Shown here: positions 315-41,473 of the stretch, piece after piece | Layout of the letters: the number at the start of each line of letters is the position of its first letter | How positions within the stretch are numbered: position 1 is the first letter of the stretch | IMG/VR virus record: IMGVR_UViG_3300037116_000081 | Location: 1 to 64,000 of that record | Origin: a virus | Length of the DNA stretch: 64,000 nucleotides | Reading direction: 5' to 3' (one strand) | Translations under genes and position numbers: made by a program | The notes under the pieces: generated by a model | Told to the model about the DNA's origin: nothing | The model's database searches: none | What the model saw: the letters and a program-made list of their open reading frames with translations, nothing else

Positions 315-365
315 TCACACGCCAGCATCATCTTCCGTTTCGCGCTGAACTGGGGTTTCAGCGCG
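266..365. repeat. Direct repeat copy 1 (promoter, gene end and hairpin)
   Basis: 100 bp with 2 mismatches versus 41374-41473. Confidence 0.95.
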
Positions 366-512
366 TGAAGCATTTTCGCTGAATGGTGAAGGTAATATAG
401 ACCCGTCCGGAAAAACCTCAAACAATGCTCCACAATCCCGGCACTGCAAGAGCATCCACCCAGCGCGCTTCAACACGCCGCCGCAATCACATCCGGACGA
501 CCGTACATCCAT
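315..512 (-). CDS. Small Zn-ribbon-like protein
   Basis: Two Cys pairs; leaderless start; C-terminus RAETPVQRETEDDAGV is encoded across a hairpin site and is identical to that of 41423..41623. Confidence 0.55.
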   Translation of the reverse strand: MDVRSSGCDCGGVLKRAGWMLLQCRDCGALFEVFPDGSILPSPFSENASRAETPVQRETEDDAGV

Positions 513-592
513 GCGTCAATCCTGCCTCAGCGCGCGCACGCCGTCAAGACCCGGAAGTACTAGGACCGTCGAGAAAAGCGCCAACATAAAAA

Positions 593-874
593 TCAAAGAC
601 CGTAGCGCTGAGCGTGCTCCATCATCCGTGGCCACCAACTACCAGGCTGAGGACGGGGTCCGTCGTAGCCAATCATCCAGTATTCCTTTTGGGCTATGCG
701 TTCTCGCCGTTCTCGATACCGCCGCGTTATCTCTGCGCGATAGGTCAGTGGGCCAATTCGTGGTTTAGGCTGGTATGGGTTGCGCGTTCTCCATGCCCTG
801 GTTGCCGCACGCGACCTGCACTGCGCGCAGTAGTGAGAGCCGCACTGGCACACGCTGCGCTTCGCGAGTATCAT
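593..874 (-). CDS. Hypothetical protein
   Basis: C-terminus (EYWMIGYDGP..QPGSWWPRMMEHAQRYG) shared with 41625..41828. Confidence 0.6.
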   Translation of the reverse strand: MILAKRSVCQCGSHYCAQCRSRAATRAWRTRNPYQPKPRIGPLTYRAEITRRYRERRERIAQKEYWMIGYDGPRPQPGSWWPRMMEHAQRYGL

Positions 875-1368
875 TCCAACCTAAACACCGTCCCGTCAAA
901 CCAGATCGGGTATTCGCGTCCTGGTATCAGAGAAGAGGCTACCGGGTCCGTCAGACCGTCCGCTTGCTTGATGGCAACGGGATTACCGCTGACTTGGTCG
1001 ATCGCCAATGAGCAATGGCCCGCCGCGTTAGTCACGTCGGGCACTAACCTGAGATGCATCCCCTTGGCATAGATAGTCAAAGCTTGGCAACCAGCCGGCC
1101 CGAACTGGTATGTGTAGGCGAAAGTCTTGTTGCTCGACGCCACGAAGTCACAGACGCCGGATTGCGCCGTGGCCTTCGTGAGCAACGTTGCAGTGTTGGC
1201 ATCCACGAACCAGCCTTTACCTGGCGTGAAATACTGAACCAGGTTCTTACCCATCTGGAGACCCTGGAAGGGGTTGATTGCCGTGGTGCCCCGTATTTCG
1301 GTTATCACCAGCGCGCACAGCACTGTCAGCGCAACACCTTGGAGTATTCTCTCTAATGGCGATACCAT
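871..1368 (-). CDS. Exported protein with fibre/adhesin-like C-terminal domain
   Basis: N-terminal hydrophobic segment; paralogue of 42153..42635. Confidence 0.7.
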   Translation of the reverse strand: MVSPLERILQGVALTVLCALVITEIRGTTAINPFQGLQMGKNLVQYFTPGKGWFVDANTATLLTKATAQSGVCDFVASSNKTFAYTYQFGPAGCQALTIYAKGMHLRLVPDVTNAAGHCSLAIDQVSGNPVAIKQADGLTDPVASSLIPGREYPIWFDGTVFRLE

Positions 1369-1985
1369 GCGACCAATCCATCCGGCGTCGGAGTTGATTG
1401 AGGAATCGCGCCAGCAAGAAACGTGATCGTATTTCCAGACAGCGTGTAATCGATGCCCGCGGTTTGCAAAAGCCCGTTTCGGATCAGCATCAGGCTACCG
1501 GCCGGCGAAGGCGCCGCGGCAAGGACAAACGTGGCGTTGACGCCGTTGACAGTTCCGCCTGGTACTTCAGCATCCGAAAAGTTTCCGCCGCTTCCTGCTG
1601 GTCCCTGTGGCCCCGTTGCGCCGGCCGCTCCGGCTGCACCTGCGGGTCCGGTCGCGCCAATAGTGCCGGCTGGCCCCTGCGCACCTGTAGCACCGGCCGG
1701 CCCCGCGGGTCCAGCAATCGAACACCCCGTAGCAGCCGCGTTAAACGTAATAGAGCCGTGTGTCCCTGCCACTGTCGGATAGGTCACCACAATGCAAGCG
1801 GATTTATTGTCCAGCTCGACAATCGCCCCGGTTGGAGTCACGGCAATGACCGAGCCGGCCGGCACCGCTACCGTGGCTTTGATTTGCTGCTCAAGGCTCG
1901 GCTTGGTCTGGCCATGCAGGACCGCGACAAGGATGCCCCCTACTCCGATACAAAAGAGCGAGCTAACGATGAGAACTCGTTTCAT
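1353..1985 (-). CDS. Secreted collagen-like (Gly-X-Y) protein
   Basis: Signal peptide, ~14 GXY triplets and a beta-rich C-domain; paralogue of 42620..43234; TTGCGC-17-TAAGCT promoter just before the ATG at 1985. Confidence 0.85.
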   Translation of the reverse strand: MKRVLIVSSLFCIGVGGILVAVLHGQTKPSLEQQIKATVAVPAGSVIAVTPTGAIVELDNKSACIVVTYPTVAGTHGSITFNAAATGCSIAGPAGPAGATGAQGPAGTIGATGPAGAAGAAGATGPQGPAGSGGNFSDAEVPGGTVNGVNATFVLAAAPSPAGSLMLIRNGLLQTAGIDYTLSGNTITFLAGAIPQSTPTPDGLVAWYRH

Positions 1986-2023
1986 GCAGACAAGCTTACT
2001 CCAGTTCCCGAAATCGCGCAATA

Positions 2024-2254
2024 CTACGCCAGCTCCGCAAGCAACGTCAGTTTCGCTCCAAACGCCGGTTGAGTCGCCCAGGTCATCGCTATCAGGGTAG
2101 CCGAGAGCACGCCCAGGAAGACGCCGACAGCCGCAAGCGGCGCGACGACTGAAGCCAATCCTGGCATCGCGATAATCCCAAACAGCACCAGTAACATGCT
2201 GATGAAAGAGCCGAGCGCGAGCCCAGCGATAAAGCCTTTGTGTTCGTTACTCAT
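2024..2254 (-). CDS. Small 2-TM membrane protein
   Basis: Two hydrophobic helices; AAGGA RBS. Confidence 0.6.
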   Translation of the reverse strand: MSNEHKGFIAGLALGSFISMLLVLFGIIAMPGLASVVAPLAAVGVFLGVLSATLIAMTWATQPAFGAKLTLLAELA

Positions 2255-2387
2255 TTGTGTCCTTCCACGGCTTGATAGTATGGCCTGAAATTGAAGTTTG
2301 AAATGAACCAGAAGTACCGATTCACTCTTAGTACTTATGGGCTATCCTGCGTCTCGTGCTGCACTGGAGTAGCAGCACGTTGGGGCG

Positions 2388-2648
2388 TTACGCGCTTTTC
2401 CATCCGTAATTGTCTCTCGATCCGTGAATGTGTCGGGCGTGCCACTCCCGGCCCTTCGTGTCTACCAACTCGCGTGGCAAAATCAGATCGTCCTTCAATG
2501 TATCGGCGGGTGGCAGGCTCTTCAAATATTCTATCGCTTGCGCTCGAAGGTCGCGCCGAAGAAATTCAAACGGTGTGATTCCCTTGAAGTGATCCGGCAC
2601 ATCCCGGAGTGTTGAGTCACGCGGAAAGATGACAGGCTCCTGGTTCAC
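2388..2648 (-). CDS. Hypothetical protein
   Basis: Overlaps the stop of the upstream gene; ends next to hairpin 2350. Confidence 0.55.
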   Translation of the reverse strand: MNQEPVIFPRDSTLRDVPDHFKGITPFEFLRRDLRAQAIEYLKSLPPADTLKDDLILPRELVDTKGREWHARHIHGSRDNYGWKSA

Positions 2649-3025: not shown

Positions 3026-3085
3026 TACCTTACACTTTTTTCGTCTTGGCAGGGCACTGGAGTTAGTAGCCCTGCCCCTGAGCGG

Positions 3086-3374
3086 ATAATGCCCCAACTC
3101 TGCCTGTAAGTCAAGTACTGTAGGGTACCAGTCGGGTGAAAACACTTGAGATTTTTCCAGGGCGGGTGTAAACTTTGAACCATGCCACAAACAGCAGCAG
3201 CATTCGCTTGGCTGGTTAAATCTCCAAACCTAAAAACGAAAGGCCGGATCTCCGCGTGAGAAAACCCGGCCTGACTCGAATGGTCTGCACTTCCCGGTCA
3301 CCACACCAGAAAGGTTCACAGCCTGAACAACAGCCTGAACATGCCCATTATACAACAGTCTGAACCTGCGTCAA
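3086..3374. promoter_or_regulatory. Divergent control region with leftward promoter, rightward promoter, antisense promoter, minus-strand terminator and 11-bp direct repeats
   Basis: TTGAGA-17-TAAACT (+, 3146-3174); TTGACG-16-TATAAT (-, 3347-3374); GGCCGG hairpin with T-run (-, ~3232-3272); ACAG(C/T)CTGAAC at 3318, 3330 and 3355. Confidence 0.6.
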
Positions 3375-5371: not shown

Positions 5372-5437
5372 TTCGTTTCTTCCTTCAGGTTTCGGCGGGG
5401 CACTGGAGTAGCCCCGCCCAAAATGTTGGCCGGTCGG

Positions 5438-5878
5438 TCACTTCAGATACCATCGGCGCGTTTCATCGTCGCCTTCAATCTTCGATTCCACTACTCCTTT
5501 CGATTTGAGCCACGAACAGGCGGTATAGACTGTCTGAGCTGGAACTTTCAAAAACTGAATCAATTCCATGCTCGACATCGGGCGTTTGCGCAAAGCCTCT
5601 TGGACCCGATCTACTATGGACGGACCACCAGCGCGCGGTGCTTCACTTTCGTGTGCTGCTATTGGCGCGTGCTTAACCGGCTGCTTTCGCTGGTACGCGC
5701 GTTTTACTGGTGGCTGTTCTGGGGCTTGTTCTACGGGACTGGCTAACTGGAGTGGCCCCTCCGTTATCACGGGAGCTTCCGCAGGACGGGGAGTTCCCTG
5801 GATCGCGGAAAGCAAACTCCGGATCGTTTCTTCGTTTTCAACTTCGGCATCGATAATAACCGCGTGGATCTTCGCCAT
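5438..5878 (-). CDS. Winged-helix DNA-binding protein
   Basis: C-terminal wHTH (MSSMELIQFL..QTVYTACSWLKSKGVVES..WYL); bracketed by hairpins 5389 and 5894. Confidence 0.7.
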   Translation of the reverse strand: MAKIHAVIIDAEVENEETIRSLLSAIQGTPRPAEAPVITEGPLQLASPVEQAPEQPPVKRAYQRKQPVKHAPIAAHESEAPRAGGPSIVDRVQEALRKRPMSSMELIQFLKVPAQTVYTACSWLKSKGVVESKIEGDDETRRWYLK

Positions 5879-5924
5879 TGTTCGACCTTTCCCCGCGCTG
5901 CTATTCCAGTGCAGCGCAAGACGA

Positions 5925-7445
5925 CTAGAAATCTTTCGTTACTGCTTTACGTTCATCTTCTGTCCCTGGCTGTTCTGGATCTTCGTCTTCTTCTTCGGCT
6001 GGTTCATCCGAGAGGAACTGCAAGACAAAAGTCTGCACCTTCTCGGGCGGCTGCAATTGCATGAGCAACTGTTGAACGTTTGGCGCCGCGACTTGCTTTC
6101 GAAGTTCGAAAAGCGCGAGAACTTTCTCCGGCCCCAGCTTTTTCGTTTCCCGATATGAGAAATCTCCGTATTCATCCAGGAACCAATCGCGGAAATGCAT
6201 TCCGGTAGCTTTGTGGAACATGTCCACCATGTGTGGTGTCGCTATGTCGAGCATCGGCCCCATGGTCGCATTGATAAGTTCCAACTCCATGAACATGGTT
6301 TGTTGCTCCGATGTGAGATTGGGATTCATTTGCTGGGGCTGCGGGACGTCAGGCGCGGCCGGTTCGGGAAGGGAATGGTCAGCCTGTACGGTAACGGGCG
6401 GGCGTGGTGGCGGCTTCTGCCCAGCGCGCGCGATGGCAACCTGTGCGACGGCTCCCCCAACTTCTAAAAGCTTTTGGACAACCGGGACAAGCACTCCCGC
6501 CCAATCTGTTCCGGAGCTGGCCGCGCTATTCCCGCGGAACATGCCGGCGATTTCTTTCACGTCGCCCAACTCTTCCTTGAGTGAGCGCCGTGGCTCGGGC
6601 GTGTTGTTCTTCGCGAGCAGTTCGCGTGAGAATTTACGCTCTTCGGAAAGTTCGGATTGCATTGCGGCGAGCTGACTCATCACGAGTTGAACCACTCCCC
6701 CGCCGTCCGACTTGTTGACGCTGAGAATTTTCTCGACCAGCCCCATGAACTGAGCCGGGTTCGCCATCGCCAGCATGCGATCCGCGCTTTTTTCCATACT
6801 CTCTATCACTTTCCCGGCGAGTGAGTTTTGTTCTTCCGGTGCAGCCTCAGGACGAAGTTGCTTGACTGCGTTCACCGCGGCCTTGAACATTTCGGCGGCT
6901 TGATCCATGCCCGCACTCGTGCCGGCCACTTGCTGCTGCTGGATACGCCTCGACTCCGCGGCCTCTAGTAAAGGCTTGGCCCACGCCCAGTCTTTGTTGC
7001 GGCCGTCATTGATCCACTCACCCAGGGGAAGCTTAGGCGGGTAGTTCATGTTCATGATCCGAAAATAGTGACTGTAAGCAGACTTACCGTGGCGGGTTGT
7101 CGGATTAAATAGATTTAATACAGCAAGGTACTTTCCGCTGCCGTACTCTTCCATGACCGACTGCTGATCGATCGGCTGGGTGTACTTCATGATGAAGTTG
7201 TCATTGCCGGTGATCTTCCGGTCGGTGTAGGGCTCACATCGGTACAGGTATATGGTGTATAAGTCCTTCCAATCCTGTTCGGTGAGAGCTTTCAAGCTAT
7301 CGAAGAACGATTCTCCGACGTCCCCCGCTCCCGTGTCGGCTTTTACGTCTCTCGGAGCCCTCGGCCGGCCTGGTGGCCGCTTATCCGGCGGTTCAAGTGG
7401 TTGAGTCTGCTCTTTTTGGATCGGTTCTGCGGTGGTTTCTGCCAC
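5925..7445 (-). CDS. Large hypothetical protein (506 aa)
   Basis: Globular N-domain, helical middle and acidic tail; divergent from the structural operon. Confidence 0.8.
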   Translation of the reverse strand: MAETTAEPIQKEQTQPLEPPDKRPPGRPRAPRDVKADTGAGDVGESFFDSLKALTEQDWKDLYTIYLYRCEPYTDRKITGNDNFIMKYTQPIDQQSVMEEYGSGKYLAVLNLFNPTTRHGKSAYSHYFRIMNMNYPPKLPLGEWINDGRNKDWAWAKPLLEAAESRRIQQQQVAGTSAGMDQAAEMFKAAVNAVKQLRPEAAPEEQNSLAGKVIESMEKSADRMLAMANPAQFMGLVEKILSVNKSDGGGVVQLVMSQLAAMQSELSEERKFSRELLAKNNTPEPRRSLKEELGDVKEIAGMFRGNSAASSGTDWAGVLVPVVQKLLEVGGAVAQVAIARAGQKPPPRPPVTVQADHSLPEPAAPDVPQPQQMNPNLTSEQQTMFMELELINATMGPMLDIATPHMVDMFHKATGMHFRDWFLDEYGDFSYRETKKLGPEKVLALFELRKQVAAPNVQQLLMQLQPPEKVQTFVLQFLSDEPAEEEDEDPEQPGTEDERKAVTKDF

Positions 7446-8807: not shown

Positions 8808-9557
8808 ATGTACGTCTCTTCAAGATCTTCCGTCTCGCGCTGCACTGGAGTAGCAGCGCGGGGAACAGTCTCGCGATCGCTTGGCGATATCTCCTCACCG
8901 CAGTCCATCAATCAGATAGTAACGGTTGGCGCATCGACTACTGTTGGAATTCTTGTAGCGTTAGGCACGGTTACGGGTCCGATTGGAGCGGCCATCGCTG
9001 GCTTGATCGCAGTTGGCTCGCTTATCGCCAACATGTTTCACGGCTGTGGGCAGACCTGCGTAGTCGCGACACAGGACGCGAACAAGATCGGCGCGTTGCT
9101 CGATCAGAATCAGGCAGCGTATATGAACGCCCCGGTTCACTACAAGAGCTTGCAAGCGGCGGCGCTAAACAACATCAACACGCTCGCGGCGGCATTGCAG
9201 CAAGCGTGCAGCGATCCATCTTTAGGGCAGGCTGGGCAGCGCTGCATCTCCGAAAGATTGGTCAGGCGTCCGTGTCCGAGCACGTTGAACGATTCGAATA
9301 TCGGCGGCGGGCAGATCAAGTTCTGCGATTACTGGAGCTTCTATTACGATCCGATCGCGAACGATCCGAATGTAGTTCCGGACCCCACGCCAGCTTCGTC
9401 GGGTCCAGCTTCAGCGGCGGTCTCTTCGGTGGGCTCCGCAATTTCTTCTGTGCTGCCTTCATCGGTCAGCAGTCTTTTGACCGGGAGCGTCTTTGGTCTT
9501 CCAGTGTGGCTGCTCGGCGCGGTGGCGCTCACGGCCTTGTGGGTGGCGAGCGAATGA
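8808..9557 (+). CDS. Putative virion membrane protein
   Basis: SLGD motif, Gly/Ala TM hairpin, Cys-rich domain and C-terminal PVW-TM. Confidence 0.75.
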   Translation: MYVSSRSSVSRCTGVAARGTVSRSLGDISSPQSINQIVTVGASTTVGILVALGTVTGPIGAAIAGLIAVGSLIANMFHGCGQTCVVATQDANKIGALLDQNQAAYMNAPVHYKSLQAAALNNINTLAAALQQACSDPSLGQAGQRCISERLVRRPCPSTLNDSNIGGGQIKFCDYWSFYYDPIANDPNVVPDPTPASSGPASAAVSSVGSAISSVLPSSVSSLLTGSVFGLPVWLLGAVALTALWVASE

Positions 9558-12768: not shown

Positions 12769-12832
12769 GACGACTGAGGGACACCCCGAAAGCTTCAACG
12801 CGCTGCTACTCCAGTGCAGCGCGAAACGGAGA

Positions 12833-13192
12833 ATGTTCATGAGAGGATTCGGTAGCTACAGCAAAACTCCAACTCCATGGGGATGGGAATATTATCCCCC
12901 ACCGTACCGCTTTGCTTCACCGTCCACGGGGCCTAGCGGAATACGTCCGACTTACGCGAGCGCGCGATACATGGGCATGACAACACGAGCGTTGAGCAAC
13001 CAGGGCGGCGGGCTCGGATGTGCGGGGCAGTGCGGTTGCGGTGGGACGTGCGGCATGGGGCAAGTGGATCTTTCGTTTCTGACGAATACGTTCAGCTTGG
13101 CGGGCTACCAGATTCCGGTCTGGATTGGGCTCATGGTTGGGATCGGCGCGGTCGCAATGTACAGCGGGTTGAGCAATAAAAAGAGACGATGA
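12833..13192 (+). CDS. Tail-anchored virion membrane protein
   Basis: MRGFG and CGMGQ motifs; PVW-TM-KKRR. Confidence 0.75.
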   Translation: MFMRGFGSYSKTPTPWGWEYYPPPYRFASPSTGPSGIRPTYASARYMGMTTRALSNQGGGLGCAGQCGCGGTCGMGQVDLSFLTNTFSLAGYQIPVWIGLMVGIGAVAMYSGLSNKKRR

Positions 13193-18280: not shown

Positions 18281-18324
18281 GTCTTGCGCTGCTCTGGAAT
18301 GCAGCGCGGAGAAAGGTCGATCAA

Positions 18325-27730: not shown

Positions 27731-27815
27731 ATCACAGCCGGCTTTAGGCGTATACTTCTGACATGAGCATCCTCCGTTTCGTGCGGCATTGGAGTAGCCG
27801 CACGGAGGGCTGTCG

Positions 27816-28232: not shown

Positions 28233-28542
28233 CCCGGCTGCTACTCGCGGTGTGGTGGTCTGCCGCTGGTTGGATTGCCATGTGCGCGGGTGTTAGCTGG
28301 ATTCTTTTTAACGGTTGGTTGCGGAAGACAGTTCAAACTCTTGGGCGGGGCTACTCCAAGTGCCCCGCCGAAACCCCAAAGTAGCGTATGACACTACAGG
28401 TCTGTGACGTATGCCGATTAGTAGACGGAGACTTGTCAGTGAAGTTGTGCGACTGGTGCCAATCCTGTAAAGCGTGGATATGTCAGAAGGACTGGAATAA
28501 CTGGCCCCGGCGCTCGCTCGCGGCTATTCGGAGAATGAGACA

Positions 28543-29163: not shown

Positions 29164-29222
29164 CCGCGAGCATTTTGCGTTTCGTTTTGCACTGGGGTAG
29201 CAGGACGCTGGGAGATCGATGA

Positions 29223-29600
29223 ATGGCGACTAAGCGTAAACAAGTTCGACCCACGAAAGGGGAACCCGCTCAACCGTCTCCCGCTGGTTTTGAAGCATGG
29301 GCTATTATCGAAATCTTTGGCCACCAGAAATACGCGGGCAAGGTTTCGGAGTTCGCAATCGGCGGGTGTAATTTCGTGCGCGTCGATGTTCCCGAGCTGC
29401 CCACGCGCCGTCCACAGGAACCGGCCATGCCCGCGTTTACCAAGCTCTTTGGAAACGGAGCCGTGTATTCGATCACGCTTGTATCTGAGGACGTGGCCCG
29501 CGCGGTCGCTGCGACGATCCGGCCAGAGCCGCTCAACGTTTACATCCCGATAATCCCTGACCGCCAGTTGCGCTCCGGAGACGAGGACGGATTTCAGTGA
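29223..29600 (+). CDS. Conserved phage protein (WAIIEIFGH family)
   Basis: Close inverted copy at 33789..34175. Confidence 0.8.
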   Translation: MATKRKQVRPTKGEPAQPSPAGFEAWAIIEIFGHQKYAGKVSEFAIGGCNFVRVDVPELPTRRPQEPAMPAFTKLFGNGAVYSITLVSEDVARAVAATIRPEPLNVYIPIIPDRQLRSGDEDGFQ

Positions 29601-29676
29601 TGTCGCCGACCGTTCGGAATCTTGGGCAGGGCTACTTCAGTGCCCTGCCGACAGCCCCTGGAACCTGAAAAGATTC

Positions 29677-30210
29677 GTGTACCTCTACTACCAACCCCGG
29701 CGAAGAAGAGGCTTCGGTGATCTCTCAACCGTTGCGGCCGCGATTCAGCAAATTGAAGGTTGGGCGCCCGGTACACGATCTTACCGCAATAACAATCCTG
29801 GGAACCTGATGTACGCGGGGCAACCCGGCGCGACTGGCCAAGATCCTCAAGGCTTCGCAATCTTTCCGGATTATCAAACCGGGCTCACGGCGCTCGACAA
29901 TCAAATCACACTCGACGCTTCGCGCGGCCAGACCATTTCGCAGTTCACGTCCATCTATGCCCCGGCGTCAGACGGAAATAACCCCACGTCGTATGCGGCG
30001 CAAATAGCTTCAGCGGCCGGCCTCTCACCTTCAGACTCACTTTCAGCAGCAATCGCGGGCTCCAGCTCGGCGCCCGACGTTTCAAGCGGTATGGATCTCT
30101 CATCGCTGTTTCCGTCGCTCAGCCTTCCGTCAATCGACTTCACGGACCCGACGACAATTGCCGTAACGGTGGGGATCGGCCTGGCGCTGGCGTGGGCACT
30201 GAATGCGTAA
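29677..30210 (+). CDS. Virion-associated lysozyme-like protein with C-terminal TM
   Basis: I..IEG...RNNNPGNL...FA.F...G..AL...YAP..D.N.P..Y; RRRGFGD leader. Confidence 0.8.
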   Translation: MYLYYQPRRRRGFGDLSTVAAAIQQIEGWAPGTRSYRNNNPGNLMYAGQPGATGQDPQGFAIFPDYQTGLTALDNQITLDASRGQTISQFTSIYAPASDGNNPTSYAAQIASAAGLSPSDSLSAAIAGSSSAPDVSSGMDLSSLFPSLSLPSIDFTDPTTIAVTVGIGLALAWALNA

Positions 30211-30466
30211 CTCTTTTCGTTTTGTGCTGCCCTGGAGTAGCAGCACGGAGAATGGTCGGCAAAGGGGGTGATGCACTTTGCAATCTGCGCACTTTGCGGC
30301 GGCTACCATGCAATCGGATGCTGTCCAACCCCGCAGTTTTGCCCGCGCGTGGACGTGGTAGCGCTAGCGGGCCGGTAAAACCACGATCTCCCAACCTCTT
30401 GGGCGGGGCTATTCCAGTGCCCCGCCGATAGCCCCTATAGTACTTTCCAACTTGAATTAAACTGGT

Positions 30467-32540: not shown

Positions 32541-33048
32541 AGCGCCCTCCTTGCTGTCCAATATACACCGAGATCCCGAGACTCTTGATGTCCGAAGGTG
32601 CGAACCTCACAGTATAGCCGATCGACTTCCCGAAGGTCTCAGCAGCAGCGGCAGCGGCTACAGCGGTCTTTAGCGCGTCTTCGAGCCGGGTAGGAGGAAT
32701 AGACGTTGGGATACCGTCCAAGGGCTCAGATTGGTCAAGAATCGTTGCTATGGCTGTTTTAGGAGCTATCTTCGTCTCGTGCGGCAATGGAGTAGCCGCA
32801 CGTTGGGCCCCGTTGGCTATCCAGTTGAAAGTACGCCCGTTCTGGTGTTTCGTGATAGTAAACGGCTGTCCGGGCCTTACGCCCAGGTCTTCGATCTGTG
32901 GGCCTACTAACAGTGGCGTGTACAGCAAGTCACCGTTTGAGAGTATCCAGCGGAGCTGATCTCCCCAGGTGCCGGGCACTAGTTTCCCGGTCGGGTACCT
33001 CAGTGCGATGGTGTAGGGCTTGTTCGGCTCCAACTTTAGGATTGGCAT
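32530..33048 (-). CDS. Hypothetical protein, possible OB-fold ssDNA-binding protein
   Basis: Beta-rich N-domain, linker containing hairpin 32773, helical C-domain. Confidence 0.6.
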   Translation of the reverse strand: MPILKLEPNKPYTIALRYPTGKLVPGTWGDQLRWILSNGDLLYTPLLVGPQIEDLGVRPGQPFTITKHQNGRTFNWIANGAQRAATPLPHETKIAPKTAIATILDQSEPLDGIPTSIPPTRLEDALKTAVAAAAAAETFGKSIGYTVRFAPSDIKSLGISVYIGQQGGRYAA

Positions 33049-33220: not shown

Positions 33221-33371
33221 CATGGTTAAGTTTCGCCCGCAGACGTTGGGCGCGTCACTGGATCGAAGGTACCGAAATGAAAGGCGAAGATGCCTATGCC
33301 AAATCAGGTGTTTGTCCTAGTACCGAATCCTCAGGGCGCTGCATTCCAGAGCAGCGCGAGACGCAGAAAAA

Positions 33372-33719
33372 TCATAAGCGAGTGAACGTAATCTGATCTC
33401 CTACTTCTGTTGAAAGTGCTCCCCCAGAAGGAAGCTCAAGCACAGAATTGGAGCCGGATACTTCGGCGATTCTGAACCCAGGCGGTGCCGCAACATGCTG
33501 AAGCACGCGCCCGCGATTGTCCAGGTACAGCACGTCAATCGGAAACTTCATCCCCACCGTATGAACGCTCTGGCACTTCAAAATCAGCAAGCCTTCGCCG
33601 GCCTGCATCGACGTTCGATCGAGTAGCCCGCGCGTTCGTTCCTGATCTGATTGAGCTACTTTACAGACTGAACAGAGGAGTATTTGTTTGGTTTGATTGA
33701 ATACTCTAAGGTGGGCCAC
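33372..33719 (-). CDS. DUF192 family protein
   Basis: ER.RGLL.R...G.LI...SVHT.GM.FPIDV.YLD...VLEL..G motif. Confidence 0.9.
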   Translation of the reverse strand: MAHLRVFNQTKQILLCSVCKVAQSDQERTRGLLDRTSMQAGEGLLILKCQSVHTVGMKFPIDVLYLDNRGRVLQHVAAPPGFRIAEVSGSNSVLELPSGGALSTEVGDQITFTRL

Positions 33720-33788
33720 TTCAATTTCCAGGAGTTATCGGCAGGGCACTGGAGTAGCCCTGCCCAAGAGGTTGGACGGTCGTAGAGC

Positions 33789-34175
33789 TCACTGATAATC
33801 ATCCTCGTCTCCTGAGTGCAACTGGCGGTCAGGGATTACCGGAATGTATATATTGAGCGGTTCAGGGCGAATCGTAGCGGCAACCGTGCGCGCTACGCCT
33901 TCAGATACAAGAGTGATCGAATACACAGCGCCGTTCCCAAAAAACTTGGTAAACGCGGGCATCGCGGATTCCTCGGGACGTCGCGCTGGCAACTCCGGAA
34001 CATCGACGCGCACGAAGTTACATCCACCGATTGCGAACTCGGAAACCTTGCCGGCGTATTTTTGATGTCCAAAGATTTCGATAATCGCCCATGCTTCAAA
34101 AGCAGCGGGGGACGGTTGAGCAGGTTCGCCTACCCGTCCCCCTTTGGGGTGTTGAACTTGTTTGCGAGTGCCCAT
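33789..34175 (-). CDS. Conserved phage protein, inverted paralogue of 29223..29600
   Basis: Direct alignment. Confidence 0.8.
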   Translation of the reverse strand: MGTRKQVQHPKGGRVGEPAQPSPAAFEAWAIIEIFGHQKYAGKVSEFAIGGCNFVRVDVPELPARRPEESAMPAFTKFFGNGAVYSITLVSEGVARTVAATIRPEPLNIYIPVIPDRQLHSGDEDDYQ

Positions 34176-34387
34176 TTTTCATAACTCCCAACGTCCTGCA
34201 TTCCAGAGCAGGACGAAACGAATAAATCCCCGCGCCCGGCTCCGTTTCACCTTTTCTGATCACCCCCCGGTAATTTTCAAGGGAAGCGGAGCCAGACACG
34301 AGACGCCCCGAATCTCCGCCGCTCGGGACCACGCGGGTTGCAATCGACGCTCGCCCGGCTAAGGTTGCGGCGCCGATCCGGAACTTG

Positions 34388-36019: not shown

Positions 36020-36368
36020 GTATTTCTCCTTTTTATTTTACCGCTACCAGGTTCTCAACCATCATACTGCAATTCAGATAAGAAGCAAGTACCGGAGCGT
36101 ACCAGGACCTTACTCCGTTTCGCGCTGAACTGGGGTTTCAGCGCGTGAGGATTTGCGGGCACGCCACCACAGTTCTGGATCTCCGCTGCGATTCTTGTGC
36201 CATTTACCTTTGTGCCCCTTAGGGAGCGAGCATTGAGTGCCCCCACGCTTTCCGAACTCAGTTGAACGGCAACGCCTCACGATTGACCTCCCAACGTGCT
36301 GCTACTCCAGATTGACCTCCCAACGTGCTGCTACTCCTACTCCAGTGCAGCACGAGACGAATATAACC

Positions 36369-37202
36369 TCACAGAAATCTTTGATTGACCCAGCTCTGTA
36401 CTCCATCCAGAAACTCAATTGGCCCAAAAGGCGTCTCCTGCGTTTTCCCGCATTCGTAATCCCAAACAGGCTCCCAGAGCTGAACCGATAACAGATCCCG
36501 CAAGTCCCGCTCAATCTCCGCGCTGTGCGTTGCGATGTGCAAGCGCTTCACTTTCGCGTTGAGGTCATCCAGCCCTGCGCGGATCACGAGGTATTCCTGG
36601 CCCTGTATGTCCACGTCGATCACATCGACTAACTGGTGAGGGCGCAGAAGATCGGCCAACGTGACGGTTTCAGTTGTTAGCCCTTCTTCATTGAGCGTAG
36701 CTATCCGTTGTCCGTACCACTCAGCCGGCCGGCCAGTCAGAAAGAGACATTCGCCCGGTGTGTCCGATACTGCGGCTTCGACTAATGTCGGAATGATGCA
36801 AGGCGCTATGCCGAGTCCGTTATCTCGGCAATGTTGCAACATCCATTGGTAATGCGTGGGCTCCGCCTCCACCGCTACCAATCGGGTTCGCTCTAGCCCA
36901 GCCGCAAACGCCGCCCGCACAGACCAGCGGCCATATCCGGCGCCCAGCTCCATGAACGTATAAATTTCGTTCGCGGCCTGCACGGATTCCAGTAGATCAA
37001 TCCACTCAAAGTACTCTTCGTTGAACGCAGGAAGCCCAGCTACTCCTACGGCGCCCGGCCCTTCCCTCGTTGTCTGCGCGGTGAATTCCGCCCGCGAAAC
37101 AGTTCCGAGGAAGCTGTCACTTAGAAAAACAGGATTGCCCCACATGCGTAGAGGAGCCGGCTTCCGCACGAAATGAGAGAAGACTGGGTGATGTTCAGGC
37201 AT
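36369..37202 (-). CDS. FkbM-family SAM methyltransferase
   Basis: MELGAGYG, VAVEAEP, AAVS and VD.IDVDIQG.E motifs. Confidence 0.9.
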   Translation of the reverse strand: MPEHHPVFSHFVRKPAPLRMWGNPVFLSDSFLGTVSRAEFTAQTTREGPGAVGVAGLPAFNEEYFEWIDLLESVQAANEIYTFMELGAGYGRWSVRAAFAAGLERTRLVAVEAEPTHYQWMLQHCRDNGLGIAPCIIPTLVEAAVSDTPGECLFLTGRPAEWYGQRIATLNEEGLTTETVTLADLLRPHQLVDVIDVDIQGQEYLVIRAGLDDLNAKVKRLHIATHSAEIERDLRDLLSVQLWEPVWDYECGKTQETPFGPIEFLDGVQSWVNQRFL

Positions 37203-37205
37203 TGC

Positions 37206-37529
37206 TCAAATCGATTCCCAAAACGATTCCCTTGTCTTGAATGGAGGAGACTCAACATTTTCCGTCCCGCGCTGAACTGGGGTTTCAGCGCGTTGAGCAC
37301 TCATCCACTTACTGAGGGCCTTCGATGCGCAGGGTTCGGAGCAGATGTGTTTTTCTACTGTGTCGTCACCCGCGTTTACAACCGTCGTATCCCATGGGAT
37401 TAATATAAAGACATCGGCGATCAACAAGCTCGGCGTTCGCTGTTGCGCGTACGGCCTTAACCTCCACCAGTGATTCGATTCCTGCTTTTGCTTCCCGCAC
37501 CCATCGCACGAGTAGACTTCGGATTTCAT
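37206..37529 (-). CDS. Zn-binding hypothetical protein
   Basis: CDGCG...NHWW...HICS..C. Confidence 0.65.
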   Translation of the reverse strand: MKSEVYSCDGCGKQKQESNHWWRLRPYAQQRTPSLLIADVFILIPWDTTVVNAGDDTVEKHICSEPCASKALSKWMSAQRAETPVQRGTENVESPPFKTRESFWESI

Positions 37530-38001: not shown

Positions 38002-38643
38002 TTACGCGGCCCTTCGGCTCTTCCCCACGCCTGCGTTCACGTGAGCCAGCGCGGTTTTGAAAAGCTCATCGAAAGATTGCCCGTCTTTGCCGGCCGCGAG
38101 TACGGCCTCCTGCGCTTCAGCAAAAGGAACTTTCAGATTGCAGAGAGCAGAGAGCACATCTTGATGAACTGAAGAAAGCATTTCGCGGTATTGTACTACA
38201 CTTCCACGTTTTGCGTTTCGCGCTGCACTGGAGTTGCAGCGCGTTGGGAGTTCTTTCCCGAAAACTTTGGCAGGACCTCCCACAGTTGCCCGGTTAGGCG
38301 ACGTACCCGACCATTTCTGGCTGTGACTTACCCGTCCCTGTTGTGCCTGGACGCCGATGGATTCAGATTTCTCTGAACGGACGGACTCGCTCATCTCAAG
38401 GTCCTGGGTCTTGCGACCGCGCTTATATGCGCCACTACTCCAGTGTGGCGCAAGACGAAAACTATCGAGATTCAAAAAGAGCCGGGCAACCTTACTGCAA
38501 CCGATTGCCCGGACAAGAAGTACATGCGAAATTACAGATACTCCAAAGCCTATCAGAAACATCCACCCAGGTAAAGAGCGAGTCGCAACCACGCAGAGGG
38601 AAACCAGGGCGACACCAGCGAGGAAGCTGTAGGCGTGTTTCAT
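38002..38643 (-). CDS. Membrane protein with RuvA C-terminal-like domain
   Basis: Two TM, a linker holding two hairpin sites, then QDVLSALCNL....EA..AV.....FDELFK.AL. Confidence 0.55.
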   Translation of the reverse strand: MKHAYSFLAGVALVSLCVVATRSLPGWMFLIGFGVSVISHVLLVRAIGCSKVARLFLNLDSFRLAPHWSSGAYKRGRKTQDLEMSESVRSEKSESIGVQAQQGRVSHSQKWSGTSPNRATVGGPAKVFGKELPTRCNSSAARNAKRGSVVQYREMLSSVHQDVLSALCNLKVPFAEAQEAVLAAGKDGQSFDELFKTALAHVNAGVGKSRRAA

Positions 38644-38945
38644 TTTAACACCTCAGCATTTTCCGTCTCGCGCTGAATTGGAGTCGGATCGTCAGGCAGA
38701 AGTTCCAGTTCGTTTAGCTCGAATGGTATCGCCCCGCCGAGCATCATCTTGGGACCGAAGACCTCAAAGATATTCCAGAGCTGAGTTTCGATCAAGCCAT
38801 CCCGCCAGCCGGAATAGACTGCGTCACAATATTTTTCCCCATCCTGGATGTGGCCGAACACCACACGCGAATAGAAATTAACGAGGATGTTTTGCCCGTG
38901 TCTGTTGAGCTTCACCCGGACTCGTCGGTTAAGGTTGATCTTCAT
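38640..38945 (-). CDS. Conserved phage hypothetical protein
   Basis: NLN..V.VKL...G...QLW.....FG pattern. Confidence 0.7.
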   Translation of the reverse strand: MKINLNRRVRVKLNRHGQNILVNFYSRVVFGHIQDGEKYCDAVYSGWRDGLIETQLWNIFEVFGPKMMLGGAIPFELNELELLPDDPTPIQRETENAEVLK

Positions 38946-39060
38946 GATTTATTTTGTCCCGAAACCAGCCACAAAACAAGTAACCAAAGTACCATTCTTG
39001 TCGTAGTACGAAATCCCTATGTGCTGCATTCCAGGGCAGCACAAGACGCAACCTGCCCAG

Positions 39061-39216
39061 TCAGCAATCGCCGAAATTAACAGTCCAGAGCGCTACAATC
39101 TTCTGCCAAAACGATCCATGGCCGGTCATCTGTATTTCACAGGTCCCGTACTTATAAGTAGTCGCCAGCAATGGCAGACCGCAGATCAGCACACCACATG
39201 CGAGAATGCGTTTCAT
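39061..39216 (-). CDS. 51-aa secreted peptide
   Basis: MKRILACGVLICGLPLLA signal; AAGGAGG RBS; copy at 51971..52126. Confidence 0.7.
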   Translation of the reverse strand: MKRILACGVLICGLPLLATTYKYGTCEIQMTGHGSFWQKIVALWTVNFGDC

Positions 39217-39279
39217 TTGCCTCCTTTCTCCCCATTTTCTTCGTCTCGCGCTGAACTGGGATTTTAGCGCGTTGAGCTT

Positions 39280-39567
39280 TCAGTCCGTGTGGCATCGAAA
39301 ATACCAGCCACCGTTTTGAGACTTGGTCCTCGGGATATCCGGGTCTTTTCCGAAGCGCGGTTTTGCGCAACGCGCCTGTTCAAGCCAATCTCCCCGATCC
39401 GTCGCCGCAATAATCACCACCGGCTGAGATAATGGCATTTCCGCAAACACGATCAAACAAGCGCCTACCTGCGGAATGATAGACCGCTCATGGAAGCCTA
39501 CGACAAGGTACCCGCGTTCCTGAATCAGGAAGCTTGCAACTTCATCACCTTTGGTCATGATGCTCAA
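39280..39567 (-). CDS. Hypothetical protein
   Basis: Bracketed by hairpins 39242 and 39576; C-terminus resembles 43662..43970. Confidence 0.6.
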   Translation of the reverse strand: MSIMTKGDEVASFLIQERGYLVVGFHERSIIPQVGACLIVFAEMPLSQPVVIIAATDRGDWLEQARCAKPRFGKDPDIPRTKSQNGGWYFRCHTD

Positions 39568-39971
39568 CCTCCCAACGTCCTGCTACTCCAGTGCAGGACG
39601 AAACGAATACCATTCCTCATAAGAATAGCGGCTATAATCACCACTCCGAACCACAACATGGACGGCTCCGGAGTAATCGTTGGCGGTGGCACGTACGGCG
39701 GCGGCACAATTGTCTGTCCTGGAGGAATCACAGGAGGCCCCGGAGGGATGACCACGGCCACATACGCAGGCGGCTCCCACGTCTCCGCTTTCGGCGCGCA
39801 CCATTGGATTGCAGGGTTCAGGACCGAATTCTCACAGATAATTTTATCCGTCCCATAACCCGGAAAGTAGACTACCGTTGTCCAGGCGTCCTGTTGCAAG
39901 GTGATCACGAGATCGCCGTAGGTAAACGGTGTCGTACCGTTCCCCATTGGCTGCTGAAGATTGACACTCAT
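39564..39971 (-). CDS. PEP-CTERM-like protein
   Basis: TPEPS-TM-basic tail; paralogue of 51522..51881. Confidence 0.7.
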   Translation of the reverse strand: MSVNLQQPMGNGTTPFTYGDLVITLQQDAWTTVVYFPGYGTDKIICENSVLNPAIQWCAPKAETWEPPAYVAVVIPPGPPVIPPGQTIVPPPYVPPPTITPEPSMLWFGVVIIAAILMRNGIRFVLHWSSRTLGG

Positions 39972-40447
39972 TAGCATTCCTCCGTCTCGCGCTGAACTGG
40001 GGTTTCAGCGCGGGGAACCTCCGACCAATCCCAGAGACTTAGCGCGCCTTTTGCAGGAATCGGAGTTTCGAACGCGCGCACATTTTTAAGTATCCAACCA
40101 AACCGATTCGGAGAATAGTCTCCGAATGCACGCTCTCTTTCCGTGTCCAGTTCAGGGTAATCGTCAAACACTCCCGAGAGGCAGCCGCGCGCCTCTGTCG
40201 GAAGAATGTCAATGAGTTCGCATGTTGCGATAATCTTCCCAATAGGAAGTTGTAACGCGGACACCACGGAAAGGGAAGAACGGAATGGCTCAATTAGAAC
40301 GTAATCGCGGCAATCGGGCGGGAAGCCCTTCGCGGCGTGTATCGCAAGCGGCCCACGGTACGCGGTGCTCCAGGAGCGTGTCTCGATTCTCTTCGCCCCG
40401 AGTGCTACAAGCGTAGCCCATGGCTGAGTGAGAGTCAGGGCTTTCAT
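39971..40447 (-). CDS. ASCH domain protein
   Basis: KALTL.QPWA.L...GAK.IETRSW...RGPLAIHA...P.KG.L.LW. Confidence 0.92.
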   Translation of the reverse strand: MKALTLTQPWATLVALGAKRIETRSWSTAYRGPLAIHAAKGFPPDCRDYVLIEPFRSSLSVVSALQLPIGKIIATCELIDILPTEARGCLSGVFDDYPELDTERERAFGDYSPNRFGWILKNVRAFETPIPAKGALSLWDWSEVPRAETPVQRETEEC

Positions 40448-40617
40448 GCGAGACCTCCCAACGTGCTGCTACTCCAGTGCAGCACGAAACGAATACTACT
40501 CCTCATTCTTTGGCCATTTCGCACGGTCAGTCTTAGGGTACTTTGCGTTCGACGTAAACACTTCGTACGCAGCCATCCCGAGCAGGCATACGATGAGGAG
40601 AAAGCATCCAAGTGCAA

Positions 40618-41058
40618 TCATGCGGCCCTCCGTTGAATCAACTGATCTCTAAGGTATTCCCCGCAGACACGGAAAGCTCTGAGAATCGCATTCTTGGCCC
40701 CATAGGCAACCGGATCTAGCAAGAATTCTTGCCCTCTGTAAAGCGCATGCCAGTAACGCAAGCCTGCTTCTTCCTCACGTGGGACGATTACCAGCCGCGG
40801 CTTCTCTCTCAACTCCCGTAAAATCTCCTGCACATCCAATTCGTAAGTCTGAATGAATCGCGGCCATCCGATCCGGTGTTGCTCTTCGTGATGCGCGGAG
40901 CACAGCGGCAACGTGTCCAGGTCAGAGCGCTTCTGTCCCATCCCGCGTGATCCCGGAGCGTGCGCCGCTTGGACTCCCCGCGTGCGGCCGCAACCTGGCA
41001 CAGCGCAAGGAAGCGTGCGGATGAAGGCGAGATGTTCGGGAGAGCGTGTGGGAGTCAT
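40618..41058 (-). CDS. DUF968/HNH-like Zn nuclease
   Basis: HLAFIR.LPC...CG...AAH...GMGQK..D...PLC..HH..QH. Confidence 0.75.
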   Translation of the reverse strand: MTPTRSPEHLAFIRTLPCAVPGCGRTRGVQAAHAPGSRGMGQKRSDLDTLPLCSAHHEEQHRIGWPRFIQTYELDVQEILRELREKPRLVIVPREEEAGLRYWHALYRGQEFLLDPVAYGAKNAILRAFRVCGEYLRDQLIQRRAA

Positions 41059-41062
41059 GTGT

Positions 41063-41368
41063 CTACAAGAACCTCTGCGCTACCCAACCGACTCCCAGGA
41101 TCATCAGCAGTCCACAAATTTCATAGATTTCCCTAAAGTGAAAGGGATATTCTCTTTCGGGTTTGGGCTTCTTGAAATTACGCCGCCTGAACATCGCGAC
41201 AAGGCAGGACACGCCAATACTTCTTGCTACACCCAACGGTCTGACGTCGGTATAGGAAACGATAAACCACAGCCAAAAAAAGCTGGTTACGTATCCGGCC
41301 AAAACAATACTGATAGGCACCAGCAATATCCCGACGCAGCCCCAAGCCGAATCTTTTGTTTCGCCCAT
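41063..41368 (-). CDS. 3-TM membrane protein
   Basis: Leaderless start after the repeated promoter. Confidence 0.65.
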   Translation of the reverse strand: MGETKDSAWGCVGILLVPISIVLAGYVTSFFWLWFIVSYTDVRPLGVARSIGVSCLVAMFRRRNFKKPKPEREYPFHFREIYEICGLLMILGVGWVAQRFL

Positions 41369-41373
41369 GCGTT

Positions 41374-41473
41374 AATCTTGCCTCAGCGCGCGCACGCCGT
41401 CAAGATCCGGAAGTACTAGGACTCACACGCCAGCATCATCTTCCGTTTCGCGCTGAACTGGGGTTTCAGCGCG
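41374..41473. repeat. Direct repeat copy 2
   Basis: Matches 266-365. Confidence 0.95.

Follow-up and report, generated by a model that had tools for sequence, protein, structure and literature searches.

The window analysed here, 64,000 nucleotides of IMG/VR record IMGVR_UViG_3300037116_000081, raises the question of what a family of small hairpins in alternating orientation is doing in a viral genome. The complete record (85,924 bp) consists of two phages joined end to end, and the sites are confined to the first, here called virus A; the last site copy, 41431..41490 (+), lies at the junction with the second phage, and the copies at 323..382 and 41430-41476 are 96% identical. A covariance model built from 30 sites (R1) finds 33 matches in the whole record, all within 323-41490 and none at 41.5-85.9 kb, two of them being weak (3029-3093, E 0.0016; 38651-38713, E 0.004). 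With up to one mismatch the motif ACTGGAGTA occurs 34 times (5.8 +/- 2.8 in shuffles), a count that none of 100 shuffles attains. Strand-symmetric scans for hairpins over the complete record return 23 and 30 of them, located at 349-41458 except for one at 77661 that is weak and chance-like. The hairpin site family first noticed in a sequence-only reading of this DNA is confirmed as real.

Each module spans about 50 nt and comprises a short T-rich flank ending in CGTYT, a G+C-rich stem of 8-9 bp, and a 7-nt loop, CTGRRKT, that is almost invariably CTGGAGT. Across the 30 sites 94.3% of the cells in the 8-bp stem are paired compared with 75.2% in shuffles, and double-sided changes occur in seven of ten tested pairs. 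Pairing is 98.5% in 93 sites from five records, an alignment that was fitted to the covariance model, and 98.3%, with 139 double changes, in the 68 independent sites from other records, none of which was used in building it. The stems had been described as changing freely; pairing is indeed kept through covariation, but the second and seventh pairs are nearly fixed as G-C (92/93 and 68/68 sites for the second, 90/93 and 62/65 for the seventh). The fold with one extrahelical base did not survive, its inner ACT/AGT pairs being formed in 24/30 and 21/30 sites with no double-sided change, and the loop is better read as 7 nt long (CTGRRKT), with A-T or A.A closing it. Four of five single sites folded as DNA have energies of -9.8 to -11.4 kcal/mol (z -2.8 to -4.4). 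The sites fall between one stop codon and the following start; start codons are 9-30 nt from the stem whichever way the site faces, and Shine-Dalgarno (SD)-like GGAG or GGGAGG lies 3′ of the hairpin on both strands. The R1 matches are:

323..382 (+): class III, stem CGCGCTGAA, loop CTGGGGT; E 7e-14
2337..2396 (+): class I; E 1.9e-14
3029..3093 (+): degenerate site with an insertion 3′ of the loop; weak match
5376..5435 (+): class II, stem GGCGGGGC; left end of cassette with ORF 5438-5878, which is without homolog in G006
5877..5936 (-): class I; right end of the same cassette, 13 nt before the start at 5878; position and orientation matched in G006
8818..8877 (+): class I, amid structural genes; kept in G006
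12783..12841 (-): class I, best match (E 6e-17); outer flank gives GGAG ahead of the start at 12839; missing at the corresponding place in G006
18267..18325 (+): left end of slot with a 54-aa ORF (18325-18486)
18483..18542 (-): right end of that slot; the pair is empty in G006, 43 nt apart
26206..26265 (+): left end of three-ORF cassette (26266-27105)
27107..27165 (-): class II; right end of that cassette, between convergent genes
27762..27821 (+): left end of Dam methyltransferase cassette (27816-28232)
28327..28387 (-): class II; right end of that cassette, a slot with 2.5-kb cargo in L242
29165..29224 (+): left end of 125-aa gene cassette (29223-29600)
29608..29667 (-): class II; right end of that cassette
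30205..30263 (+): left end of short slot; absent in G006; L242 homology stops at the stem foot
30385..30444 (-): class II; right end of that slot, the only partner present in G006
32760..32819 (+): class I
33318..33376 (-): class I, loop TCTGGAAT
33722..33781 (+): class II; end of inverted second copy of the 125-aa cassette
34175..34233 (-): class I; closes that copy, 13 nt ahead of the start at 34175
36103..36162 (+): class III; left end of short slot
36308..36372 (-): class I with internal tandem duplication
37250..37309 (+): class III; alternation break
38201..38259 (+): class I; left end of short slot
38411..38470 (-): class I; right end of the slot begun at 38201
38651..38713 (+): degenerate class III, 3′ arm lost; weak match
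39003..39061 (-): class I
39229..39288 (+): class III-like
39559..39618 (-): class I, 15 nt before the start at 39558
39970..40029 (+): class III; an ASCH ORF reads through
40446..40504 (-): class I, 12 nt ahead of the start of the ASCH gene (40447)
41431..41490 (+): class III, last copy; junction with the second phage

Neighbouring sites have opposite orientation in 28 of 29 pairs from 5376 to 41431, in agreement with the earlier count, the only break being at 37250..37309, where the next site is also +. Over all 33 sites the figure is 28/32, and 0 of 50,000 permutations reach the alternation seen. Alternation arises because unnested convergent (+,-) pairs in a row always read + - + -. In the closest relative (G006) 19 of 26 neighbours are opposite, compared with 10/21 and 8/18 in the distant carriers G009 and G010. 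Random orientation in relatives, which the sequence-only reading named as refuting its idea, is thus seen in the distant carriers and not in the closest relative, and the site family as a whole does not share the near-perfect alternation. Orientation is independent of transcription, as had been claimed: among the 93 sites 30 are sense and 31 antisense, the remaining 32 being unclassifiable under crude ORF calls. No sign of the suggested inversion switching or genome folding was seen; the read joints all have short sides of 24-51 nt and reflect repeat cross-mapping.

Comparison with relatives ties the polarity of the sites to gene content. Against L242, a close relative at 82-93% nucleotide identity, the (+,-) intervals are 32% alignable (1060/3326 nt; five of nine at 0) and the (-,+) intervals 89% (6647/7496 nt; all eight at 73% or above; Mann-Whitney p 0.0036). 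By tblastx against G006 the values are 42% and 70% (p 0.00036). Homology breakpoints fall within 32 nt of a site in 13 of 21 cases, although only 18% of the region is that close (binomial p 1e-5), an excess that may partly reflect that sites flank accessory genes and that mosaic boundaries in phages coincide with gene boundaries in any case. At six conserved sites with differing cargo, homology stops 0-14 nt past the 3′ stem foot, a pattern that ordinary homologous recombination together with selection acting on the hairpin would leave as well. Slots are kept with changed cargo in four cases relative to G006 and at least five relative to L242. One cassette is present twice in virus A:

29165..29669 (+): whole cassette (site, 125-aa gene, site), with an inverted duplicate at 33720-34234 (80% identity)

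A homolog of the 125-aa gene in an unrelated provirus, G001 (4963-5325), also lies between sites, at 4547 (+) and 5338 (-). G002, G006 and G007 contain empty doublets whose sites are 70-80 bp apart, and solitary sites occur as well (8818, 12783). The proposed link to gene cassettes is borne out by these convergent pairs around variable cargo, by the breakpoints at sites, and by a cargo gene that travels with both hairpins.

The family extends to five or more further phage lineages from peat or soil, tailed ones included. The claim of restriction to one virus is true only within the record, as the tailed phages G001, G002, G007 and G010 share the sites; G006, G009 and G010 are also found by the site motif alone, and G007 carries 20 sites yet has no protein match to the window. 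All ten matches in the 7.3-Mb host MAG lie inside the prophage, with no copy in the chromosome outside it, and matches occur in 0 of 100 other genomes of the host's family. Among 185,579 species genomes scanned, full or multiple matches occur only in the host's prophage contig, and the family was not found in GenBank phages and plasmids.

Among the ORFs of virus A that were examined (57, plus 20 more), none was found to encode a recombinase, integrase, transposase or HUH enzyme. A candidate partner of the sites, by co-occurrence only, is a nuclease:

40618..41058 (-): HNH/DUF968 nuclease gene (Pfam DUF968, E 4e-7; PHROG HNH, E 8e-11)

It is present in 5/5 complete site-rich genomes and 0/2 site-free ones, a link that rests on about three independent lineages because G000A, G006 and G009 are one lineage; of 80 loci that carry HNH relatives, only 7 have sites within 10 kb.

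On balance we hold it probable that these are gene-boundary hairpin modules acting as junctions for cassette exchange, and we infer that the hairpins are places of DNA exchange. The modules mark the edges of exchangeable cassettes in gene-dense accessory regions, and a slot consists of two facing sites, + then -, with conserved backbone on the 5′ side of each and cargo beginning a few bases from the 3′ hairpin foot. Cargo ranges from nothing (only a 43-nt spacer) through a tiny ORF to one to three accessory genes, for example a Dam methylase or an ASCH protein, and varies between close relatives while the slot persists. Exchange may proceed by homologous recombination between co-infecting phages with the conserved module as linker, or through a phage factor that cuts at the folded hairpin, and the hairpin with its purine-rich flanks would keep the next gene translatable either way round. 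That the loop and two of the G-C pairs are fixed implies a factor reading the folded strand, for which the co-occurring HNH nuclease is a candidate; with no recombinase or similar enzyme found in virus A, an active mechanism would be without a known engine.

That the sites stand 9-30 nt ahead of starts, flanked on either side by SD-like sequence, would be expected equally of a role played only in RNA, a role that we regard as possible but doubtful. The hairpin would then be an intercistronic element, a stem-loop at the 5′ or the 3′ side or an attenuator, that stabilizes or insulates cistrons; the purine-rich flanks would bind the ribosome for the following gene, and mosaic junctions would fall there merely as gene boundaries. 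The stability of the hairpins agrees with this, as does the terminator function described for the promoter-early stem-loops (PeSLs) of T4-type phages (PMC2839356). However, with sense and antisense sites equally frequent and the loop equally fixed, an RNA reader would meet CUGGAGU or ACUCCAG, and all seven wobble pairs within the stem are G.T on the site strand, antisense sites included, with no A.C. There is no U-tract 3′ of the hairpin, terminator-like sites (24 versus 18.9 +/- 4.6) and promoter-like sites (6 versus 8.7 +/- 2.7) are not enriched, an SD-sequestering lower stem is unsupported (49.3% paired versus 51.0% in shuffles), and the polarity of the cargo is left unexplained. Because orientation is independent of transcription while the loop is equally conserved and wobbles are G.T only, there is thin support for recognition of the sites at the DNA level, which is plausible but unproven. 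Kissing between the complementary loops of the two sites around a gene, paired on one RNA strand and bridging the cistron ends, seems to us barely credible. Inverted partners yield complementary loops by construction and a few pairs deviate together (e.g., 27762 and 28327), but the loops in 31 partner pairs are no more alike than those of shuffled same-genome partners (mean difference 0.68, permutation p 0.72), an A.C mismatch would, as we read the loops, arise in the mRNA of at least 6 of the 14 pairs in the window, and the loop is kept at solitary sites; this reading is already weakly refuted.

Mobility of the sites themselves, as a selfish MITE- or REPIN-like element, is in our estimate unlikely. 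The convergent pair would form terminal inverted repeats, sometimes with passenger genes, and the putative mover would be a transposase, whether RAYT-like, HNH or host-encoded. The G002 doublets (4065/4141 and 7921/7998), about 135 bp long and themselves long imperfect palindromes, are what such an element would look like, the polarity faces inward like that of transposon ends, and the sites are confined to phages and spread over those without other common genes, such as G007. Yet the searches found neither a transposase nor a Y1 enzyme, filled and empty places show no visible target-site duplication, and partners differ at 1-6 of 8 stem positions and so are not matched ends. Many sites have orthologous counterparts in genomes at 50-90% protein identity, and these old copies keep their pairing by compensatory change, which implies selection on each copy. 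The short hairpin repeats of REP, BIME and REPIN systems are similar, but those are chromosomal, present in hundreds of copies, and have a Y1 (RAYT) transposase, with inverted doublets as the mobile unit in REPINs, whereas the sites here are prophage-only in the host MAG, have no Y1 enzyme that we found, and stand a gene apart from their partners. Alternating orientation is also described for REPs within BIMEs (PMC2817692). An integron-like system, with folded hairpins as attC-like sites for single-stranded recombination by a dedicated recombinase, is very improbable: a structure conserved over stem sequence, a conserved loop, and gene cassettes between sites recall attC/IntI, but no tyrosine recombinase or integrase was found in virus A, the sites are convergent rather than direct and flank both cassette ends, there is no attI-like primary site or array promoter, and the extrahelical-base fold is unsupported. 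In IS200/IS605, TnpA reads subterminal DNA hairpins and the junctions keep a constant short distance from the foot of the hairpin, a point of likeness, but these ends are on one strand, not inverted, and need a Y1 HUH transposase, none of which was found here. The earlier judgement that the family fits none of attC/IntI, IS200/IS605 and REP/RAYT therefore stands, on the failure to find an integrase or Y1/HUH enzyme, the non-direct sites and the prophage-only host copies.

As junction modules, the hairpin sites most resemble the PeSLs, which are described as a small repeated intergenic stem-loop plus the Shine-Dalgarno of the next gene, clustered among small non-essential genes and located at insertion, deletion and replacement junctions between close relatives (PMC2839356, PMC4122927). 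Stem-loop with SD, accessory-gene regions and junctions between relatives are common to both. PeSLs have a strong sigma-70 promoter and terminator action, whereas the hairpin sites have no conserved promoter; unlike PeSLs, they also combine a fixed loop with a covarying stem, occur in both orientations and in convergent pairs of fixed polarity, and span phages without other common genes. The SAS/ESAS repeats of Cluster K mycobacteriophages, whose function is reported as unknown, are associated with the points where translation of certain genes begins, and half of the repeats have an upstream imperfect inverted repeat (PMC3203893). Nearly all are gene-oriented with arms conserved in sequence, whereas the hairpin sites take both orientations with covarying arms, and a link to cassette exchange is not reported in the passages cited. 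These results point to a gene-cassette system in which small fixed-loop DNA hairpins in several uncultured soil phages mark where swappable accessory genes begin and end.

The site pattern in virus A, the first ~41 kb of the record, is genuine and highly non-random. With up to one mismatch allowed, ACTGGAGTA has 34 occurrences, where shuffled sequence gives 5.8 ± 2.8, and two strand-symmetric scans of the whole 85,924-bp record returned 23 and 30 loop-bearing hairpins, all within 349–41458 except one weak, chance-like match. A search of the record with R1, a covariance model built from 30 sites, gave 33 matches, every one inside 323–41490; the conserved stretch of each site, comprising a CGTYT flank, stem and loop, is only ~50 nt. 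In the 30 aligned sites 94.3% of stem cells are paired (75.2% in shuffles), with two-sided changes at 7 of 10 tested stem pairs. Pairing is 98.5% across 93 sites from five records in an alignment fitted to R1, and another 68 sites, taken from other records and kept out of model building, reach 98.3% with 139 double changes. The second stem pair is G-C in 92/93 and 68/68 of these sites and the seventh in 90/93 and 62/65, so the stem is not entirely free. The loop is best taken as 7 nt, CTGRRKT, the CTG being nearly invariant even in distant carriers. A fold with one extrahelical base, proposed in the sequence-only reading, does not hold up, as its inner ACT/AGT pairs do not covary and fail to form in 6 and 9 of 30 sites. 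Folded as DNA, four of five single sites reach −9.8 to −11.4 kcal/mol (z −2.8 to −4.4), and the fifth, an imperfect site at 29178–29217, reaches −3.8 kcal/mol. The covariance models of Rfam 15 gave no match to window positions 1–42000 at E up to 0.1. In the site at 36303–36372 the loop has GGAGTA duplicated in tandem, and a second partial copy of the 3′ arm plus Shine-Dalgarno (SD) flank lies ~35 nt away, duplications that look like slippage at a hairpin.

The record joins two phages. The first 41 kb is syntenic, at 35–92% protein identity, with G006, a complete genome of 44,054 bp with terminal repeats and 27 sites, and further relatives are stand-alone contigs of 43.4–44.4 kb. Virus A and its 43–45 kb stand-alone relatives have an endolysin, a collagen-like fibre and FG-GAP repeat and glycosyltransferase-like proteins (window 5925–25986), and virus A has an HNH gene; in neither did PHROGs or Pfam recognise a terminase, portal or capsid protein. 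From 41.5 kb onward the genes are those of a tailed phage (terminase, portal, protease, major head protein, sigma factor and Mu Gam), and the related G004, a complete genome of 39,407 bp that has terminal repeats, lacks sites. Both parts have in common a ~1.9-kb module (1–1910 and 41365–43186, 72–95% identity) and a few other genes. Cointegration, prophages in tandem or chimeric assembly could each account for the head-to-tail arrangement. At its end (85609–85924) the record returns to the opening sequence of the second phage, at 95.6% instead of 100%. In the tailed phage a 46-bp unit stands in three perfect tandem copies at 49139–49276, overlapping the start of ORF 49154–49672. Nucleotide comparison of the window with GenBank phages found no similarity.

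The near-perfect alternation of site orientation described from sequence alone was recovered, with 28 of 29 neighbours opposite from 5376 to 41431. Over all 33 sites 28 of 32 neighbouring pairs are opposite, a count reached in none of 50,000 permutations. The corresponding counts are 19/26 in G006 (p 0.012), 13/19 in G007, 9/13 in L242 (like G006 a close relative of virus A), 6/9 in G001, 10/21 in G009 and 8/18 in G010. Since alternation fades with distance, it is a property of densely packed cassette regions and not of the site itself; it arises because unnested convergent pairs must read + − + −.

The main new result is the cargo polarity of the site pairs. L242 is colinear with window 20.6–39.1 kb, at 82–93% identity across most of the cassette region. 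Intervals bounded by a plus and then a minus site are only 32% alignable to L242 (1060 of 3326 nt), five of nine being at zero, whereas intervals in the reverse order are 89% alignable (6647 of 7496 nt), with all eight at 73% or more (Mann-Whitney p 0.0036). Against G006 the same comparison by tblastx gave 42% and 70% (p 0.00036). Homology breakpoints fall within 32 nt of a site in 13 of 21 cases, although such zones make up 18% of the region (p 1e-5). Along the site strand, homology continues through the 5′ flank and the hairpin, and at the six conserved sites whose cargo differs it ends 0–14 nt beyond the 3′ stem foot. Among 12 site pairs compared, the site itself was replaced in three and both sides were conserved in three. 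In four slots, that is, convergent pairs bracketing cargo, the cargo of G006 differs from that of the window.

Slots, given by window positions of the plus and minus sites, with their contents in virus A and its relatives
18267/18483: 54-aa ORF; in G006 the same pair stands 43 nt apart
27762/28327: Dam methylase in the window; 2.5-kb cargo in L242
29165/29608: 125-aa gene; small hydrophobic ORF in G006; 255 nt and no sites in L242
30205/30385: in G006 only the partner, of site subtype class II, right after the stop of the conserved gene
36103/36308: small ORFs, unrelated between window and G006

The 125-aa cassette is duplicated in inverted form together with both of its sites (29165–29669 and 34234–33720, 80% identity), and its gene in the unrelated G001 is likewise flanked by a plus and a minus site. 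At 33713–34382 the window has site, cargo and site where L242 has one site in reversed orientation. Comparison of these genomes thus supports a reading of the sites as cassette boundaries; the mechanism of exchange we infer. At window 37816–38001 lies a 61-aa ORF that L242 has replaced and one peat contig skips; neither of its ends carries a site, and so not all exchange here goes through the hairpins. The site-free phage holds one split site at window 52140–52260 (CGTCT flank and 5′ arm, 57 nt, then the matching 3′ arm), exactly where virus A has 1.25 kb with two cassettes between homologous flanks, and a class III stem is similarly split at 9790–9940 of L242. A tandem paralog of the gene following site 26206 lies at 4872–5155 of L242, bounded by a 40-nt direct repeat covering the SD and first eight codons.

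The fixed loop, the two fixed G-C pairs and a stem otherwise conserved in pairing only imply a factor that reads the folded strand. Hairpins acting solely in RNA would fit the geometry of the sites, which lie between a stop and the following start codon, with the start 9–30 nt from the stem in either site orientation and an SD-like purine-rich stretch after the hairpin on both strands. This RNA-only role is at odds with the orientation data and the cargo polarity, and sequestration of the SD by the lower stem is unsupported (49.3% paired against 51.0% in shuffles). Three points lean slightly toward reading at the DNA level. Orientation is unrelated to transcription, 30 sites being sense and 31 antisense among the 61 whose flanking genes agree in direction (by crude ORF calls); the loop is equally fixed in sense and antisense sites; and all 7 of 7 stem wobbles are G·T on the site strand, antisense sites included, with no A·C. 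Neither promoters nor terminators account for the pattern: the conserved ~50 nt contains no −35/−10 pair, there are 6 promoter-like (sigma-70) sites where shuffles give 8.7 ± 2.7, and intrinsic terminators are not enriched. Some ORFs run through sites, such as the ASCH gene across 39970–40029; by our own reading five of six frames of the consensus site are open, and such read-through therefore carries little weight. Avoidance of a restriction site (CTGGAG or CTGRAG) was also considered and rejected, as counts are near expectation in six genomes.

Mobility of the hairpins themselves, as in MITE- or REPIN-like elements, would fit the spread of the sites and their empty doublets, which are ~135 bp long with sites 70–80 bp apart in G002, G006 and G007 and which in G002 have a central 7-bp palindrome. 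As in REPINs and BIMEs, these inverted doublets occur as units, and the alternating orientation resembles that of REPs in BIMEs (PMC2817692). Against such an element stand the lack of any enzyme found for it, filled and empty places with no target-site duplication, unmatched ends (partner stems differ at 1–6 of 8 positions), and copies that are not the near-identical, dispersed ones of Correia-like elements. Unlike REPs, which are chromosomal and accompanied by a RAYT, the sites have neither many host copies nor a Y1 (HUH) transposase, and unlike IS200/IS605, whose end hairpins lie on the same strand and come with TnpA, partner sites are inverted and no TnpA was found. Integron-like recombination at hairpins lacks a recombinase: Pfam and PHROGs searches of 57 ORFs of virus A revealed no integrase, transposase or Y1 enzyme, the IntI family of tyrosine recombinases included, and 20 further ORFs held no integrase family either. 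Integron sites all point one way, one to a cassette, but here 28/32 neighbours are opposite, and conserved extrahelical bases are missing too. Pairing between loops was rejected as well, with no partner effect in 31 pairs (p 0.72).

The closest known system is the PeSLs, repeated intergenic cassettes of promoter and stem-loop in hyperplastic regions of T4-type phages, which mark the limits of indels and replacements when close relatives are compared (PMC2839356, PMC4122927). The sites likewise act as junctions of modular exchange, sit between small accessory genes with a stem-loop next to the SD and start of the following gene, and bound indels and replacements between close relatives. They differ from PeSLs in having no defining sigma-70 promoter, in the fixed loop over a covarying stem, the convergent pairs and fixed polarity, and in crossing phage families. 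The Cluster K SAS/ESAS resemble the sites in being tied to translation starts and in having an inverted repeat upstream, but those have one orientation with the downstream gene (PMC3203893), unlike the 30 sense and 31 antisense sites here. We file the sites with the gene-boundary stem-loop linkers of phage mosaicism. A search of open-access full text found no description of such hairpins in phage or Acidobacteria phage genomes.

The sites had been thought restricted to one virus; the same family is present in the six further record entries listed here.

Carriers of the site family in other viral records
G001: 81-kb provirus with terminase, 12 site matches
G002: 10.5-kb fragment with genes common to the tailed part, 7 site matches
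G007: structural genes in common with G001, no protein match to the window, 20 site matches
G009: virus A type, 22 site matches
G010: 107 kb, 19 site matches
L242 to L245: further carriers

A 17-base core scan of one genome for each of 185,579 species returned 78 stretches, of which only three had full-length or multiple matches, all on one Bryobacteraceae MAG contig that is the G001 prophage. An origin as a host REP was rejected, because in that 7.3-Mb host MAG all 10 matches lie within the prophage (150 of 2585 candidates scored) and none of 100 other genomes of the host family has a match (54 candidates scored per genome). No site was found in GenBank phages or in PLSDB plasmids, where the single match (E 0.3) lies inside a coding gene. 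A 506-aa protein of virus A was not found in 401 sampled genomes of the host phylum, and so the host of virus A is inferred from shared modules only. Runs containing virus A are peat and permafrost metagenomes, and contigs covering the stretch come from peat and permafrost in three DNA runs and one RNA run. At every read joint located at a site the short side is 24–51 nt and is the repeat itself, and these joints are accordingly taken as cross-mapping. One joint that recurs, running from 41422 to 41631 with an insert of 32 letters, is identical to the arrangement at window 509–686. The permafrost metatranscriptome run gave 17 short virus A contigs in window 22001–42000 with no ends visible; contigs from the RNA run, some with adaptor remnants, may be DNA carry-over.

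Only two protein families are common to the five complete site-rich genomes and missing from both site-free genomes, namely an HNH/DUF968 nuclease and a lysin-like virion protein; the five genomes represent about three independent lineages, and three of them were also found by the site motif alone. The 125-aa cargo protein is not universal among carriers. In G010 the lysin-like protein forms one portion of a giant protein. An ORF of ~3150 aa spans 65158–74613 of G010, and part of that ORF matches the 177-aa backbone protein at window 29677–30210. The HNH/DUF968 gene (window 40618–41058, minus strand) always stands among sites in site-rich genomes. HNH genes are common in phages, and only 7 of 80 loci with relatives of this gene have sites, so that its link to the sites is a weak one. 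No solved structure related to it was found by sequence. We tentatively propose, as a reading that is more probably wrong than right, that the sites are recognition sites of a new structure-guided phage cassette system with this protein as candidate nuclease. The nuclease would read the folded top strand through the fixed CTG-initiated loop and the two fixed G-C pairs and would cut at the 3′ foot of both convergent hairpins, so that gene cassettes would be released or taken in with two-fold symmetry. Accessory genes could thereby spread among unrelated phages of one host group. For a dedicated structure-reading enzyme behind the sites there is a fair chance, and the system would then be new in kind.

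It has long been asked how phages swap small accessory genes precisely at gene boundaries, a question that dates from the modular theory of phage evolution and the PeSLs of T4-type phages. The sites present an unusually clean case, with a structure-defined site, a fixed loop, fixed slot polarity and homology that ends at the hairpin foot, and one site family extends across otherwise unrelated phages, with no copy found in the host chromosome. Should an enzyme read the hairpins, the cassette machinery would be of a new kind and might serve as a tool for site-directed insertion; if the proposal is true, phages would have an equivalent of integrons or REP/RAYT that uses neither a tyrosine nor an HUH enzyme. 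If no enzyme is involved, the sites would still illustrate clearly, in nature, how short structured linkers steer recombination. They would also be a practical marker for accessory genes, including defence, counter-defence and methylase genes, in uncultured soil phages.
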